From IMG/VR virus record IMGVR_UViG_2537562216_000005: DNA of 6,099 nt. The stretch is one strand, 5' to 3'. The DNA is from a virus. Taxonomy: Duplodnaviria; Heunggongvirae; Uroviricota; Caudoviricetes. Shown piece after piece: positions 834 to 5,730 of this stretch. The notes beneath the pieces were generated by a model, which had not been told where the DNA came from, ran no database searches, and saw only the letters and a program-made list of their open reading frames with translations. The position numbers and the translations under genes are program-made. Each line of letters starts with the position of its first letter. Position 1 is the first letter of the stretch.

Positions 834-1505
834 TCAGCGACCAATCACCACAACCTGACCACCGTCCCCTTCGTCTGCCGTGCTGATCTCCTGAGAAACC
901 ACGCGTGACCCCACGCGCATTTCCCCGTACAGAACAGGCAGAACATTGCCCTGGGCAACCATGTTATCCAGTGAGGAGAAATAGGTGTTCTGCTTACCGT
1001 TATCCGTTGTCTGTGTACGGGGAGTTCTGGCTTTCGGTGCCAGCATCTGCGCCACACCACCGAGCACCATACTGGCACCGAGAGAAAACAGGATGCCGGT
1101 CATACCACCGGCCCCAATGGCTGCCCCCCATGCTGCAAGGGTGGCTCCGGCGGTAAAGAATGATCCGGCAATGGCGGCAGCCCCCAGGACAATCTGGAAT
1201 ACGCCACCTGGCTTGGCCCCGGCGACTCTGGGAACAATATGAATCACAGCGCCATCAGGCAGAGTCTCATGTAACTGCGCCGTTAACCCGGACGTGCTGA
1301 CGTCCCGCCCGGCAATCCGTACCTGATACCAGCCGTCGCTCAGTTTCTGACGAAACGCCTGGAGCTGTGTGGCCAGTGCCCGAATGGCTTCAGCCCCCGT
1401 TTTCACACGAAGGTCGATGCGGCGGCCAAATCGTTGTAAATCCCCGTAAAGGCAGATGCGTGCCATGCCCGGTGACGCCAGAGGGAGTGTGTGCGTCGCT
1501 GCCAT
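834..1505 (-). CDS. I: Tail assembly protein I (223 aa); N-terminal ubiquitin-like domain ending in Gly-Gly (aa 100-101), then a glycine/alanine-rich hydrophobic segment
   Basis: 223-aa ORF starting MAATHTLPLASPGMARICLYGDLQRFGRR, matching lambda gpI in sequence and length. Stop TGA at 836..834. Overlaps the 3' end of K by 103 nt in a different frame, as in lambda. Confidence 0.93.
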   Translation of the reverse strand: MAATHTLPLASPGMARICLYGDLQRFGRRIDLRVKTGAEAIRALATQLQAFRQKLSDGWYQVRIAGRDVSTSGLTAQLHETLPDGAVIHIVPRVAGAKPGGVFQIVLGAAAIAGSFFTAGATLAAWGAAIGAGGMTGILFSLGASMVLGGVAQMLAPKARTPRTQTTDNGKQNTYFSSLDNMVAQGNVLPVLYGEMRVGSRVVSQEISTADEGDGGQVVVIGR

Positions 1506-2146
1506 TTGTCGGTATACCTCTCTCGTTTGCTCAGTTGTTCAGGAATATGGTGCAGCAGCTCGCCGTCACCACAGTAAATGGCGGCATGATTCGGCACCGA
1601 TGAACCAAAACAGCACAGCAGTACATCGCCCGGCTGCGCCGCTGACAACGGCACCTGATACAGCCCCGTTGCCTCCAGATTATCCAGATAGAGATTCTGG
1701 CCGTTACGCCACCAGTCATCCTCACGATGAAAATCCGGCATCTCAATCCCCGCCAGATGGTAAGCGTCCCGGAACAGCGTGTAACAGTCCATCACCCCGT
1801 GCTCAAAGCGTCGCCCGGTGAGATGCGGCACACAGCGGAACTTATGAATCGCCCCCCGGCAGACCAGCCACCACGGCAAATCACTCTGCACCTGCAGCCG
1901 CCGGTCAGCATCACTCAGCCAGGGCAGACCACCGGGGTGACTGTGGACCAGCGCCACAATCTCACCCTGAATTTCTGCCTGCAGCCAGTCCTCCGGAGCC
2001 ATCCGGAAATACGCCTCCGGCTCACCGGAGATATTCACGCAGGAAAAATATCTTTCCTCCTCCGGCGTTCTCACCACGAAGCCGCACGACTCCGCTGGCG
2101 CACATCGCCGGGCGTGCGCCAGAATCGCTGATTCTGTCTGTGTCAT
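1403..2146 (-). CDS. K: Tail tip assembly protein K, long form (247 aa) with N-terminal JAB/MPN metallopeptidase-like domain and C-terminal NlpC/P60 cysteine peptidase-like domain; the classical lambda annotation starts at the internal Met (2002), giving 199 aa
   Basis: The frame is open from 2188, but residues from MTQTESAILAHARR (ATG at 2146..2144, 4 nt after the L stop TAA at 2153..2151) are the plausible long form. HSHPGGLPWLSDAD fits the JAMM pattern HxH-x7-S-xx-D (about 1945..1904). NlpC/P60-like Cys (DCYTLF, about 1786..1784) and His (NHAAIY, LLHH) are present. The internal Met (RMAPEDWLQ) at 2002 is preceded by GGAGG about 11 nt upstream. Stop TGA at 1405..1403. Confidence 0.85.
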   Translation of the reverse strand: MTQTESAILAHARRCAPAESCGFVVRTPEEERYFSCVNISGEPEAYFRMAPEDWLQAEIQGEIVALVHSHPGGLPWLSDADRRLQVQSDLPWWLVCRGAIHKFRCVPHLTGRRFEHGVMDCYTLFRDAYHLAGIEMPDFHREDDWWRNGQNLYLDNLEATGLYQVPLSAAQPGDVLLCCFGSSVPNHAAIYCGDGELLHHIPEQLSKRERYTDKWQRRTHSLWRHRAWHASAFTGIYNDLAAASTFV

Positions 2147-2150
2147 GGGA

Positions 2151-2849
2151 TTACTGCGAAAGTTTGTTAATGGAAAGGAAGCCGCCAAAGTTGCCGACGT
2201 TATTGCGGAACTTACAACCGCTCAGGCATTTGCTGCATTTATCCTTCGTGATATCGGACGTTGGCTGGTCATATTCATCCGCGACCGCCGGACCGTGATA
2301 ACCGCACTCATCGCCGCGATAGGTCCAGGTGCAGGTGTTGGCCAGCATGATACGTCCCGGAAAAACAGCGCCGTCCGTTTCCGTCGGCGTGGACAGTACA
2401 AAGGAGGCACTCACCGCGCTCAGTTCGCTGCACTGCTCGATGCGCCAGCGGCTGATCACCTCCTGCTCCGGATCGGCGTCACTGTTTCCGTTGACGAAGT
2501 TCACCGCATCCAGAAAACGGGCGTAAACCTTACGCCGGACCACCGTTCCGCCGACCAGACTCTGCAGATCTTCCGCCATCCCGGTGACCATACCGTACAG
2601 GTTAGAAACCGTCAGTGTGGGGCGCGTACTGGTGCCTTTGCCATTCAGTTCAAAACCGCTCCCCTGAATGGGATACGCCTGATACTGCCTCCCCTGCCAG
2701 GTGACCGGCTCACCTTTTTCGTTCTGCTCATTACAGAAAAAATAACGTTCTCCACCGACCTCTGTCAGATCGATTTCCCAGAGCACCACGCTGGCCGACT
2801 GCTCCGCACGGGTGCATTCATTCAGTGTTTCCTGCCGGATATCCTGCAT
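2151..2849 (-). CDS. L: Minor tail protein L (232 aa)
   Basis: ORF beginning MQDIRQETLNECTRAEQSASVVLWEIDLTEVGGERYFFCNEQ matches lambda gpL in sequence and length. Start ATG (2849..2847) overlaps the M stop as TGATG. Several Cys residues near the C-terminus (CSKCLSGC) suggest a metal/Fe-S-binding motif. Confidence 0.95.
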   Translation of the reverse strand: MQDIRQETLNECTRAEQSASVVLWEIDLTEVGGERYFFCNEQNEKGEPVTWQGRQYQAYPIQGSGFELNGKGTSTRPTLTVSNLYGMVTGMAEDLQSLVGGTVVRRKVYARFLDAVNFVNGNSDADPEQEVISRWRIEQCSELSAVSASFVLSTPTETDGAVFPGRIMLANTCTWTYRGDECGYHGPAVADEYDQPTSDITKDKCSKCLSGCKFRNNVGNFGGFLSINKLSQ

Positions 2850-3178
2850 CAGTTCACCACCTGTTCAAACTCTGCGCTGAACTCAACACGCAGCATACTG
2901 ACCCGCGACGACCATTTTGCGCAGGTCACCTTTATCTGCCGCCACTCATAAGGCGGCGTCCACAGAAAGGATTTCCAGCCCCCGTGCTCTTCCAGAAACG
3001 ACTCCAGTACCGTGGCCTCCTCACGGGAGACAGAAAGCGTCACGCTGTACGTTTTCAGGTTGGCATTCAGCCCGGCAGGCGCTCGCTGGGAATAGCCATC
3101 ACCAAAGCGCACCTTTCTTACAGAAGGGACCGAAGCCACATCCATACCGGGTTTCACTTTCCAGCGGAAGGTTTTCAT
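2849..3178 (-). CDS. M: Minor tail protein M (109 aa)
   Basis: ORF beginning MKTFRWKVKPGMDVASVPSVRKVRFGDGYSQ matches lambda gpM in sequence and length. Start ATG overlaps the H stop as ATGA (3178..3175). Confidence 0.95.
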   Translation of the reverse strand: MKTFRWKVKPGMDVASVPSVRKVRFGDGYSQRAPAGLNANLKTYSVTLSVSREEATVLESFLEEHGGWKSFLWTPPYEWRQIKVTCAKWSSRVSMLRVEFSAEFEQVVN

Positions 3179-5730
3179 CGTCCACCTCCGGAGAACAGGC
3201 CACCATCACGCATCTGTGTCTGAATTTCATCACGGGCACCCTTGCGGGCCATGTCATACACCGCCTTCAGAGCAGCCGGACCTATCTGCCCGTTCGTGCC
3301 GTCGTTGTTAATCACCACATGGTTATTCTGCTCAAACGTCCCGGACGCCTGCGACCGGCTGTCTGCCATGCTGCCCGGTGTACCGACATAACCGCCGGTG
3401 GCATAGCCGCGCATCAGCCGGTAAAGATTCCCCACGCCAATCCGGCTGGTTGCCTCCTTCGTGAAGACAAACTCACCACGGTGAACAATCCCCGCTGGCT
3501 CATATTTGCCGCCGGTTCCCGTAAATCCTCCGGTTGCAAAATGGAATTTCGCCGCAGCGGCCTGAATGGCTGTACCGCCTGACGCGGATGCGCCGCCACC
3601 AACAGCCCCGCCAATGGCGCTGCCGATACTCCCGACAATCCCCACCATTGCCTGTTTAAGCAGAATTTCTGTCATCATGGACAGCACGGAACGGGTGAAG
3701 CTGCGCCAGTTCTGCTCACTGCCGGTCAGCATCGCCGCCATATTCTGCGCAATACCATCAAAGGTCTGCGTGGCTGCACTTTTAACCTGCGACATACTGT
3801 CCGTGGCGCTCTCTTCCCACTCACTCCAGCCGGACTTCAGGCCTGCCATCCAGCTCCCGCGAAGCTGGTCTTCAGCCGCCCAGGTCTTTTTCTGCTCTGA
3901 CATGACGTTATTCAGCGCCAGAGGATTATCGCCATACTGTTCCTTCAGGCGCTGTTCTGTGGCTTCCCGTTCTGCCTGCCGGTCAGTCAGCCCCCGGCTT
4001 TTCGCCTCAATGGCGGCCCGTTTTGCCCGTTGCTGCTGTGCGAATTTATCCGCCTGCTGCGCCAGCGCATTCAGGCGCTCCTGATACGTGACCTTATCGC
4101 CAAGTGCAGCCAGCTGGCGCTTGTACTCCAGTGTCTCATCTTTATGCGCCAGCAGGGATTTCTCCTGTGCGGACAGCTGGCGACGTTGTGCCGCCTCCTC
4201 CAGTACCGCAAACTGACTCTCCGCCTTCCACAAATCCCGGCGCTGCTGGCTGATTTTCTCATTCGCTCCGGCATGCTTCTCCAGCGTCCGGAGTTCTGCC
4301 TGAAGCGTCAGCAGGGCAGCATGAGCACTGTCTTCCTGACGATCGCCCGCAGACACCTTCACGCCTTTCGGCTTTTTCAGCGTCGCTTCATAATCCTTTT
4401 TCGCCGCCGCCATCAGCGTGTTGTAATCCGCCTGCAGGATTTTCCCGTCTTTCAGTGCCTTGTTCAGTTCTTCCTGACGGGCGGTATATTTCTCCAGCGG
4501 CGTCTGCAGGCGTTCGTAAGCCTTCTGCGCCTCTTCGGTATATTTCAGCCGTGACGCTTCGGTATCGCTCTGCTGCTGCGCATTTTTGTCCTGTTGAGTC
4601 TGCTGCTCAGCCTTCTTTCGGGCGGCTTCAAGCGCAAGACGGGCCTTTTCACGATCATCCCAGTAACGCGCCCGCGCTTCATCGTTAACAAAATAATCAT
4701 CCTTGCGCAGATTCCAGATGTCGTCTGCTTTCTTAAACGCAGCCTCTGCCTTAATCAGCATCTCCTGCGCGGTATCAGGACGACCAATATCCAGCACCGC
4801 ATCCCACATGGATTTGAATGCCCGTGCTGTCCTGTCTGCCCAGGTTTCCAGCGTGCCCATGTTCTCTTTCAGGCGGCGGGTCTGGTCATCAAACCCTTTC
4901 GTCGCGGCCTCGTTCGCCGCCTGCAATGCCCCGGCTTCTTCGCCGGAACGCTGCAACTGAGCAACATACGCAATCTGCTCCGCCGTCACGTTATGGAACT
5001 GGCGCGCCATCGCTGTCAGCCCCGACGTCGGGTCAGTGGTCAGCTTCCCGAAGGCTTCAGCGACCTTGTCCACCTCCACGCCGGATGCAGAGGAGAAACG
5101 CGCCACACTCTGGCTGATGGACGCAATCTGAGCCTCACCGCTTACCCCCGCCTTAACCAGTGCGCTGAGTGACTCGCTGGTCTGGTTAAACGTCAGCCCT
5201 GCCGCCTGCCCGGCTCTGGACAGGACCAGCATACGATCTGCCGTCAGCCCGGCCTGATTGCCGGAAAGGACCAGCGTTTTGTTGAAATCGGACAGGGTTG
5301 AGTTGCCCTGATACCAGGCATACGCCAGCGCACCGGTCGCCACCGCCAGCGAGGTGGCCCCCACCATCGGCAGGGTGATCGCACCGGCAAGCCCCCGGAA
5401 CATGGGGATCATCCCGCCGAAGGAGTCCTTCACCTGACCCCCCTGTTGCAGCAGGATCAGCCACGGACTTTGCCCGCCTGCAAGCTGCGTGGCCACGTCA
5501 GTGAACTGCGCAGGCAGCATACGCATGGCGGCTTTATACTGCCCGACGGAAATTCCCGCTTTCTGTGCAGCCAGCGCCTGCCGGTTCATCGACTGTTCAA
5601 CGACTGTCGCTGTTTTTTTCGCATCACTTTCCGTACCGGAAAAATGACGCCTGACTCTGGCCATCTGCTCGTCAAATCTGGCCGCATCCAGACTCAAATC
5701 AACGACCAGATCGCCTACCGGTTCAGCCAT
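3175..5730 (-). CDS. H: Tail length tape measure protein H (851 aa)
   Basis: 851-aa ORF beginning MAEPVGDLVVDLSLDAARFDEQMARVRRHFSG, recognisable as lambda gpH. It has a long Ala/Gln/Glu/Lys/Arg-rich central region with a coiled-coil look, and a Gly-rich hydrophobic C-terminal segment (IVGSIGSAIGGAVGGGASASGG). Its start overlaps the T stop by 8 nt, as in lambda. Confidence 0.95.
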   Translation of the reverse strand: MAEPVGDLVVDLSLDAARFDEQMARVRRHFSGTESDAKKTATVVEQSMNRQALAAQKAGISVGQYKAAMRMLPAQFTDVATQLAGGQSPWLILLQQGGQVKDSFGGMIPMFRGLAGAITLPMVGATSLAVATGALAYAWYQGNSTLSDFNKTLVLSGNQAGLTADRMLVLSRAGQAAGLTFNQTSESLSALVKAGVSGEAQIASISQSVARFSSASGVEVDKVAEAFGKLTTDPTSGLTAMARQFHNVTAEQIAYVAQLQRSGEEAGALQAANEAATKGFDDQTRRLKENMGTLETWADRTARAFKSMWDAVLDIGRPDTAQEMLIKAEAAFKKADDIWNLRKDDYFVNDEARARYWDDREKARLALEAARKKAEQQTQQDKNAQQQSDTEASRLKYTEEAQKAYERLQTPLEKYTARQEELNKALKDGKILQADYNTLMAAAKKDYEATLKKPKGVKVSAGDRQEDSAHAALLTLQAELRTLEKHAGANEKISQQRRDLWKAESQFAVLEEAAQRRQLSAQEKSLLAHKDETLEYKRQLAALGDKVTYQERLNALAQQADKFAQQQRAKRAAIEAKSRGLTDRQAEREATEQRLKEQYGDNPLALNNVMSEQKKTWAAEDQLRGSWMAGLKSGWSEWEESATDSMSQVKSAATQTFDGIAQNMAAMLTGSEQNWRSFTRSVLSMMTEILLKQAMVGIVGSIGSAIGGAVGGGASASGGTAIQAAAAKFHFATGGFTGTGGKYEPAGIVHRGEFVFTKEATSRIGVGNLYRLMRGYATGGYVGTPGSMADSRSQASGTFEQNNHVVINNDGTNGQIGPAALKAVYDMARKGARDEIQTQMRDGGLFSGGGR

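Follow-up and report, generated by a model that had tools for sequence, protein, structure and literature searches.

Tail-tip genes in the window and two candidate starts for K

The window, the whole 6,099-nt stretch of DNA that we analyzed, carries the tail-tip section of a late operon of lambda type on its minus strand, with the gene order H-M-L-K-I as read from the open reading frames. It shares 96.9% DNA identity with lambda over 1.6 kb and is most similar, at 98.6%, to a prophage of E. coli. K is preceded by the reading frames of H (3175-5730, minus strand), M (2849-3178, minus strand) and L (2151..2849, minus strand; 232 aa), the last of which is also annotated in lambda and its relatives. 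It is followed by gene I (834..1505, minus strand; 223 aa), which matches the Pfam family Lambda_tail_I at 98.3 bits over residues 14-97 and overlaps the final 103 nt of K in a different frame. The sequence '..RVAGAKPGG' was found in I, and K lies between an L homologue and an I gene whose ubiquitin-like domain ends in Gly-Gly, which is the arrangement of a lambda-type tail-tip module (TAPK with TAPI; PMC1779556). The N-terminal ubiquitin-like domain of I is the reported substrate of K (PMC1779556; PMC12908700). Iyer et al. (2006) described TAPK as a JAB domain joined to an NlpC/P60 domain and predicted that it cuts TAPI at the glycine that ends the ubiquitin-like domain and so frees this domain (PMC1779556). 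[quoted passage not shown]

The K reading frame runs unbroken from position 2146, through an internal ATG, to the stop codon at 1405-1403 and encodes 247 aa. This long form (1403..2146 with its stop, minus strand) is backed by the open reading frame, by Pfam and AlphaFold results and by the same 744-nt CDS in PGAP annotation and in the phage 21 record. Its proposed true start is an ATG (MTQTES...; 2144..2146, minus strand) standing 4 nt past the L stop; the stop codon TAA (2151-2153) and the 4-nt spacer 'tccc' (2147-2150) form the junction (2147..2153, minus strand) at which translational coupling would take place. The internal ATG (2000..2002, minus strand) encodes Met49 of the long form (..YFRMAPEDW..) and is the classical lambda K start, used in J02459, NC_001416 and OM418625. 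A GGAGG resembling a Shine-Dalgarno (SD) sequence lies 11 nt before it (2014..2018, minus strand), within the codons for Pro43 and Glu44 and the first base of codon 45.

We re-read every coordinate in the sequence and agree with the earlier note that the frame is open to the ATG at 2146, 4 nt past the L stop. Its statement that this ATG lacks an obvious SD sequence was borne out by the duplex energy with the 16S 3' end, which was +0.7 kcal/mol. The GGAGG that it placed about 11 nt upstream of the ATG at 2002 was located at 2018-2014 and gave an energy of -9.5 kcal/mol, similar to the values of about -9 to -11 kcal/mol for the other genes (H, -10.3; M, -10.8; I, -9.3 kcal/mol). A TTG at 2188, the start of the longest open reading frame (261 aa), was also considered and rejected: it lies inside L, its frame relation to L shifts with a spacer of 4 or 5 nt, and homologue N-termini fall within 0-7 residues of Met1 in 87 of 95 cases.

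Existing annotation contains both forms. PGAP gives a 744-nt CDS, named 'C40 family peptidase', in all three E. coli prophages that we inspected, DE3 included, and 744 nt is also the length in the phage 21 record and in PV340536. K is 199 aa long in J02459, NC_001416 and OM418625, in the last of these despite the presence of a G that is described below, and for a sizeable minority of clusters the gene callers likewise gave 199 aa (P0056, P0057, P0062, P0068). A 2020 review that worked from the 199-aa sequence recognized a single domain, the peptidase, which it placed at residues 52-182 of the 199 (PMC7291167).

Conservation and predicted fold of the first 48 residues

The 48 codons that are absent from the classical K (2003..2146, minus strand) were assessed by conservation, modelled secondary structure and domain matches. 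The JAMM motif, the role of its Glu and the MPN+ signature have been defined (PMC300881). In the long form, a motif E-x48-H-S-H-x7-S-x2-D can be read, in which the GAG codon of Glu19 (2090..2092, minus strand) would supply the general base and H68-S69-H70-x7-S78-x2-D81 (1904..1945, minus strand) the remainder of the zinc site, as judged from sequence reading and conservation. E19, in the context AESCGFVV, lies 49 residues N-terminal of H68, so that the full motif E-x(n)-H-S/T-H-x7-S-x2-D is found in the 247-aa form only and the 199-aa form lacks the Glu. Similarly, the long form scores 50.1 bits with Pfam Prok-JAB (PF14464; gathering cut-off 25) and covers positions 3-103 of the 114 in the profile, while the short form scores 21.0 bits, below that cut-off, and covers only positions 65-103. 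The 48-residue fragment alone matches positions 3-41 of this profile (E = 5e-5). An NCBIfam desampylase model aligns with residues 3-115 of the long form only, at a score far below its curated cut-off.

The second domain is common to the two forms. An NlpC/P60 domain at residues 111-224 (1475..1816, minus strand), whose catalytic residues are predicted to be C121, H187 and H199, matches PF00877 over the entire profile (1-105 of 105; 50.1 bits, cut-off 23), which places K among the C40 peptidases, and Foldseek matches of this part were MepS/Spr and C. difficile autolysins. This domain would stay intact in a 199-aa protein.

To compare K with distant homologues, we searched 1.84 billion cluster representatives exhaustively and obtained 2631 matches. 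The alignment A1 consists of K and 95 full-length matches of 32-57% identity (96 sequences), and its N-terminal counts carry a selection bias, since members were picked for a match that began by query residue 20. Conservation in A1 extends upstream of the internal Met, across residues 1-48 and down to 32% identity: G22 and N38 are present in 96/96 sequences, E19 in 94/96, F47 in 93/96, C21 in 89/96 and P17 in 87/96, and the mean conservation of residues 1-48 is 0.40 vs 0.46 for the remaining JAB domain. Among the zinc-site residues, H68 and D81 never vary, and at least 90% of the sequences keep S69, H70 and S78; in the NlpC/P60 domain, D120 is invariant, C121, H187 and H199 are each found in 95 of the 96 sequences and H200 is conserved in at least 90%. 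Four further representatives of low identity were retrieved from outside A1: the ExCG motif is present at the N-terminus of two, a third is a fragment that lacks a start, and only P0249 starts near Met49.

An AlphaFold model computed with A1 as input had a pLDDT of 97.2 and a pTM of 0.92; a single-sequence model was discarded (pLDDT 34.5). The modelled secondary structure includes a helix at residues 3-15 and strands at 21-26 and 31-36, all within the first domain. The best Foldseek match in the PDB was the Pyrococcus desampylase PfJAMM1 (5LD9/5LDA; TM 0.65 on target, 2.9 A), in structures of the free protein and of the protein with the ubiquitin-like substrate SAMP2 bound, followed by AMSH, CSN5 and Rpn11. 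Likewise, a profile search of PDB sequences retrieved 2KKS, 2KCQ and 5LD9, with E values from 1e-11 to 1e-14. The AlphaFold model, the Foldseek matches and the profile search all assign the domain to the MPN fold. The family pattern 'P-x-E-a-C-G' aligns with 'EVCGF' of PfJAMM1 and 'EACGL' of 2KKS, with E19 on the corresponding Glu, as would be expected if, as the earlier note proposed, the catalytic JAMM glutamate lies in the extension. E19 is thus the predicted general base of the JAMM site, its placement relative to the zinc site being judged from alignments. In the model, the first 48 residues contribute the opening helix of the JAB domain, two strands of its sheet and this Glu, so a protein starting at Met49 could not be expected to form an active JAB domain.

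A different reading of the long form is that its JAB domain is a dead scaffold, similar to MPN-minus domains, in which the Glu is structural and only NlpC/P60 is an enzyme. This appears very unlikely, because all of the motif residues are conserved: the five JAMM residues are present, each at 90% or more, which is the MPN+ signature (PMC300881). A ubiquitin-like domain ending in Gly-Gly is moreover encoded next door, and gpK has been reported to cleave gpI (PMC12908700). In favor of a scaffold, gpK appears to be absent from virions, as cryo-EM and mass-spectrometry studies did not detect it there.

Selection on the extension was examined in close relatives. Pairwise dN/dS against relatives of at least 90% identity was uninformative, with only 0-5 synonymous changes in the 48 codons, and dS was saturated past approximately 25% protein divergence; pooled polymorphism and a comparison with an E. 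albertii copy were used instead. Loci gathered from viral and genome collections supplied 82 distinct 744-nt alleles. Codons 1-48 vary mainly at third positions among these alleles (13/7/29 variable sites at first, second and third positions), and the minimum nonsynonymous/synonymous ratio per site was 0.27 in these codons vs 0.20 downstream. The comparison with the E. albertii copy gave an omega of 0.105 in codons 1-48; in the two downstream parts, omega was 0.14 and 0.09. The ratio of 0.27, the third-position bias and the omega of 0.105 are consistent with purifying selection over 2003..2146. We also anchored 81 distinct close alleles on the HSHP motif, so that their N-terminus was not assumed. 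Codon 1 was ATG in all 81, the E19 codon was GAG or GAA in all 81, and no in-frame stop was found within codons 1-48 of these alleles.

These results bear on the possibility that only the 199-aa K is real and that the stretch between L and the ATG at 2002 is an untranslated spacer. Such a view would account for the strong internal SD sequence and the many automatic calls of 199 aa, and it is the one embodied in the reference annotation (J02459, NC_001416, OM418625). We consider it almost certainly wrong, in view of the conservation of residues 1-48 in distant homologues, with G22 and N38 invariant and E19 nearly so, the third-position bias and lack of stops in close alleles, the Pfam match of the fragment itself and the position of the 199-aa form under the Prok-JAB threshold; the reference annotation follows from a 1-nt gap (see below). 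From five independent lines of evidence, namely domain models, distant homologues, close alleles, modelled structure and gene context, we conclude that the 48-residue extension is real coding sequence. The suggestion in the earlier note that the long form is probably the real product is supported by the Pfam threshold, conservation, selection, fold and the context of the L stop, all of which agree.

A single base absent from the lambda reference

Alignment of the L-K junction showed that a G at position 2012 of the window (minus strand) is absent from J02459 and NC_001416, where its place would be after reference base 14266 and before 14267; the classical ATG (reference 14276) lies 10 nt downstream of this site. 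The site reads GAGGC-TATTTCCGTATG in J02459 and NC_001416 and GAGGCGTATTTCCG in the window, phage 21, lambda imm21 and the DE3 prophage. In the reference, which is without the G, the open reading frame from the upstream ATG ends after 76 aa, and the K frame meets a TGA 7 codons upstream of the ATG at 14276. With the upstream K frame closed by this TGA, the annotators of 1982 had no choice of start.

In the sequences available to us, the site occurs 102 times; the G is missing from four of these copies, in J02459, NC_001416, OR474059 (UNVERIFIED) and OR974322, and is found in the other 98. Fourteen lambda contaminant contigs, in assemblies of Neobacillus, Pseudomonas, Shewanella, Bradyrhizobium and others and thus from independent sequencing runs, all have it. 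Compared with J02459 over up to 3741 nt, 13 of the 14 showed no mismatch and one showed two, and the single gap in each was the G. The additional G is also found in DE3, lambda imm21, PV340536 and LC730321, which otherwise agree with the reference here; most copies in this set, the contaminant contigs included, show no mismatch. LC730321 was considered as a representative of the strain that Sanger sequenced and was set aside, as it has 15 reported differences from J02459; because of these differences it cannot by itself prove a reference error, and the contaminant contigs are the better argument. In view of these comparisons, the missing G is most simply explained by a mistake in the sequence of 1982 or, at most, by a variant private to it.

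The two other records without the G, OR474059 and OR974322, are identical to J02459 across the 901 nt examined; they may have been assembled against the reference or, less probably, represent a real, viable lambda stock that lacks the G.

Our literature searches found no published statement on a G after 14266. A commercial DNA supplier presumably lists a G insertion at 14266.

The earlier note treated the 199-aa K as an ambiguity between start codons. That description is correct for the window, where both ATGs are in frame, and fails for the lambda reference, where the frame is broken by the 1-nt gap. As judged from the aligned records, the classical 199-aa K is an artefact of one missing G and not the outcome of a choice between two in-frame ATGs. 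The long form itself was already known in substance (Iyer et al. 2006; PGAP), and our addition, a useful one in our view, is to trace the old annotation to a single G missing from the reference. Lambda is the reference for siphophage tail assembly, and RefSeq NC_001416 and some recent curated records keep the truncated 199-aa K. Work based on this sequence misses the JAB domain, and an expression construct made from it would be without the catalytic Glu and two core strands. The single-base cause therefore offers a concrete fix for curation and clear guidance for cloning and expressing gpK, although it brings no new biology.

Probable initiation at the L-K junction and comparison with known systems

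The window and phage 21 have an L-K spacer of 4 nt, whereas that of lambda measures 5 nt, so that the frames of L and K are not fixed relative to each other. Across 12 loci, most of them diverged, the K start overlapped the stop of the L homologue as 'TGATG' in 5, followed it after a gap of 4-11 nt in 6 and lay 35 nt away in 1; that is, K began between -1 and +11 nt from the L stop in 11 of the 12 loci and once at +35. In the window, the 4-nt gap and the SD energy of +0.7 kcal/mol present the geometry of a coupled gene pair. Because the start has no SD sequence and lies 4 nt past the L stop, initiation is most likely carried out by ribosomes that have just finished L, and we infer from this geometry that K translation is probably coupled to L. 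In such a mechanism, ribosomes ending L would reinitiate at the SD-less ATG 4 nt further on, which would tie K output to that of L and keep it low, as would fit a non-structural assembly enzyme.

With a strong, conserved SD sequence at the ATG at 2002 and none at the ATG at 2146, some internal initiation is plausible, and both isoforms might be made: 247 aa through coupling to L, and a 199-aa protein with only the NlpC/P60 domain, from the internal GGAGG and ATG, with a separate role. The energy of the internal site is comparable to those of H, M and I, GGAGG is kept in 80/81 close alleles and the internal ATG in 77/81, and the peptidase domain is complete in the short form. However, codon 49 is CTG, ATA or ATT in the other four close alleles, and in A1 position 49 is Ile, Leu or Val in most homologues (Ile in 60/96, Met in 13/96). 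Given this lack of conservation of the internal Met, a short isoform, if it exists, is no family-wide feature. The GGAGG lies within the coding region, where it encodes Pro43, the consensus residue of the family in A1, and Glu44, and it is no more conserved than the adjacent codons; its 11-nt spacing also exceeds the optimum. In addition, the short form would retain a JAB remnant of approximately 57 residues that lacks the helix and two strands of the model and would probably be unstable. We therefore regard the production of two isoforms with separate roles as rather unlikely. A more specific version, in which lambda-like phages deliberately make a low-abundance full-length K, coupled one-to-one to L, together with a more abundant 199-aa K that has only the NlpC/P60 domain, seems to us quite improbable; if it were true, two peptidase activities would operate at different stoichiometries in tail-tip assembly.

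It is, on the other hand, very likely that K starts at the ATG at 2146, that its 247-aa product combines a JAB/MPN+ domain (E19, H68, H70, S78, D81) with an NlpC/P60 domain (C121, H187, H199), and that the 199-aa form is an artefact, with translation of K probably coupled to that of L; for this reading we draw on sequence comparison and structural modelling. In this reading, the 247-aa K would remove the ubiquitin-like domain from the N-terminus of protein I, whose gene lies downstream, while the tail tip is being assembled.

The nearest known counterpart is K of the DE3 prophage (WP_000194780.1, 'C40 family peptidase', 247 aa), which has the same place in H-M-L-K-I, the same length and the same JAB plus NlpC/P60 architecture. 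The window K protein is 96% identical to the lambda copies in the contaminant contigs; it differs from lambda by a few substitutions (e.g. R26, E30, S35, A50, I59) and by the 4-nt L-K spacer, which it has in common with phage 21. The reference lambda K (AAA96551 / NP_040598, 199 aa; J02459 14276..14875) corresponds to residues 49-247 of the window K and lacks residues 1-48, and hence the JAMM Glu.

Archaeal and bacterial JAMM/MPN+ desampylases (PfJAMM1, 5LD9/5LDA; HvJAMM1), which release ubiquitin-like proteins from fusions, have in common with K the fold and the motif E...HSH-x7-S-x2-D, with the Glu in 'E-x-C-G', and by analogy they may also share a substrate logic, a beta-grasp ubiquitin-like domain ending in Gly-Gly. 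In contrast to these enzymes, with which its identity is 21-24%, K is fused to an NlpC/P60 domain, and it would act in tail-tip assembly on gpI, a linear fusion of a ubiquitin-like domain and a protein, whereas desampylases act in sulfur-carrier or protein-modification pathways. Finally, the C-terminal domain of K resembles MepS/Spr of E. coli (C40) in that it matches PF00877 from end to end and keeps the Cys-His-His residues; unlike MepS/Spr, K has no signal peptide or lipobox, and its setting is cytoplasmic assembly.

Alternative starts of gene I and its overlap with K

Gene I, which lies downstream of K on the minus strand and encodes an N-terminal ubiquitin-like domain, overlaps the end of K over window positions 1403-1505. 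The last 21 residues of K, those overlapping I, form its least conserved segment. The classical ATG start of I at 1505 is preceded by a Shine-Dalgarno (SD) sequence of -9.3 kcal/mol (duplex energy with the 16S rRNA 3' end) and yields a 223-aa product, which matched the Pfam Lambda_tail_I profile from position 2 to 83 with 98.3 bits and was the sole form with that coverage. An alternative GTG start at 1406, which overlaps the K stop and yields a 190-aa product, is the annotation choice of PGAP and of the lambda record PV340536; this form covered profile positions 26-83, with 67.2 bits. Because the 190-aa form matches positions 26-83 of the profile and not 2-83, the ubiquitin-like domain of I is probably truncated by pipelines that call K correctly.

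Lambda re-sequencing and decaying K copies

Over the whole genome, the Lambda_AGU record (LC730321) has 15 reported differences from the 1982 lambda reference (J02459), two of them adjacent (21704-21705). Among the 15 are two single-base insertions, a G after 14266 and, in the side-tail-fibre region, a C after 20835; at position 139, one nucleotide is deleted.

Low-coverage lambda contigs (loci L008-L020, L029, L030 and L034) were present within assemblies of unrelated organisms, among them Neobacillus, Pseudomonas, Shewanella, Bradyrhizobium and Enterococcus. Some of these, at approximately 48.4-48.5 kb, were entire lambda genomes. The contigs are evidently laboratory contamination or spike-in, and they served as independent re-sequencing of lambda. 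The query matched MW057783.1, named 'Campylobacter phage CJLB-4' (48,361 bp), at 96.9% identity, and the identity, coverage and bit score of this match equal those of lambda records; MW057783.1 is probably lambda contamination filed under a different host name.

Frameshifts or premature stops in the JAB domain were found in K of E. coli ECMA0423 (L050, L051) and Shigella flexneri SFBU1023 (L054). These copies are prophage genes in decay and illustrate a K gene without constraint.

Other operon junctions and the tape-measure gene

Tight junctions were also found elsewhere in the operon, at M/L, where TGATG holds both the stop of M and the overlapping start of L (window 2849-2852), and at H/M, where the H stop and M start overlap by 4 nt (3175-3178). 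In contrast to the K start, those of L and M are each preceded by an SD sequence, with duplex energies in the range -7 to -11 kcal/mol. The tape-measure gene H (3175-5730) has a long, glycine-rich C-terminal part and encodes 851 residues, as compared to 853 in lambda.
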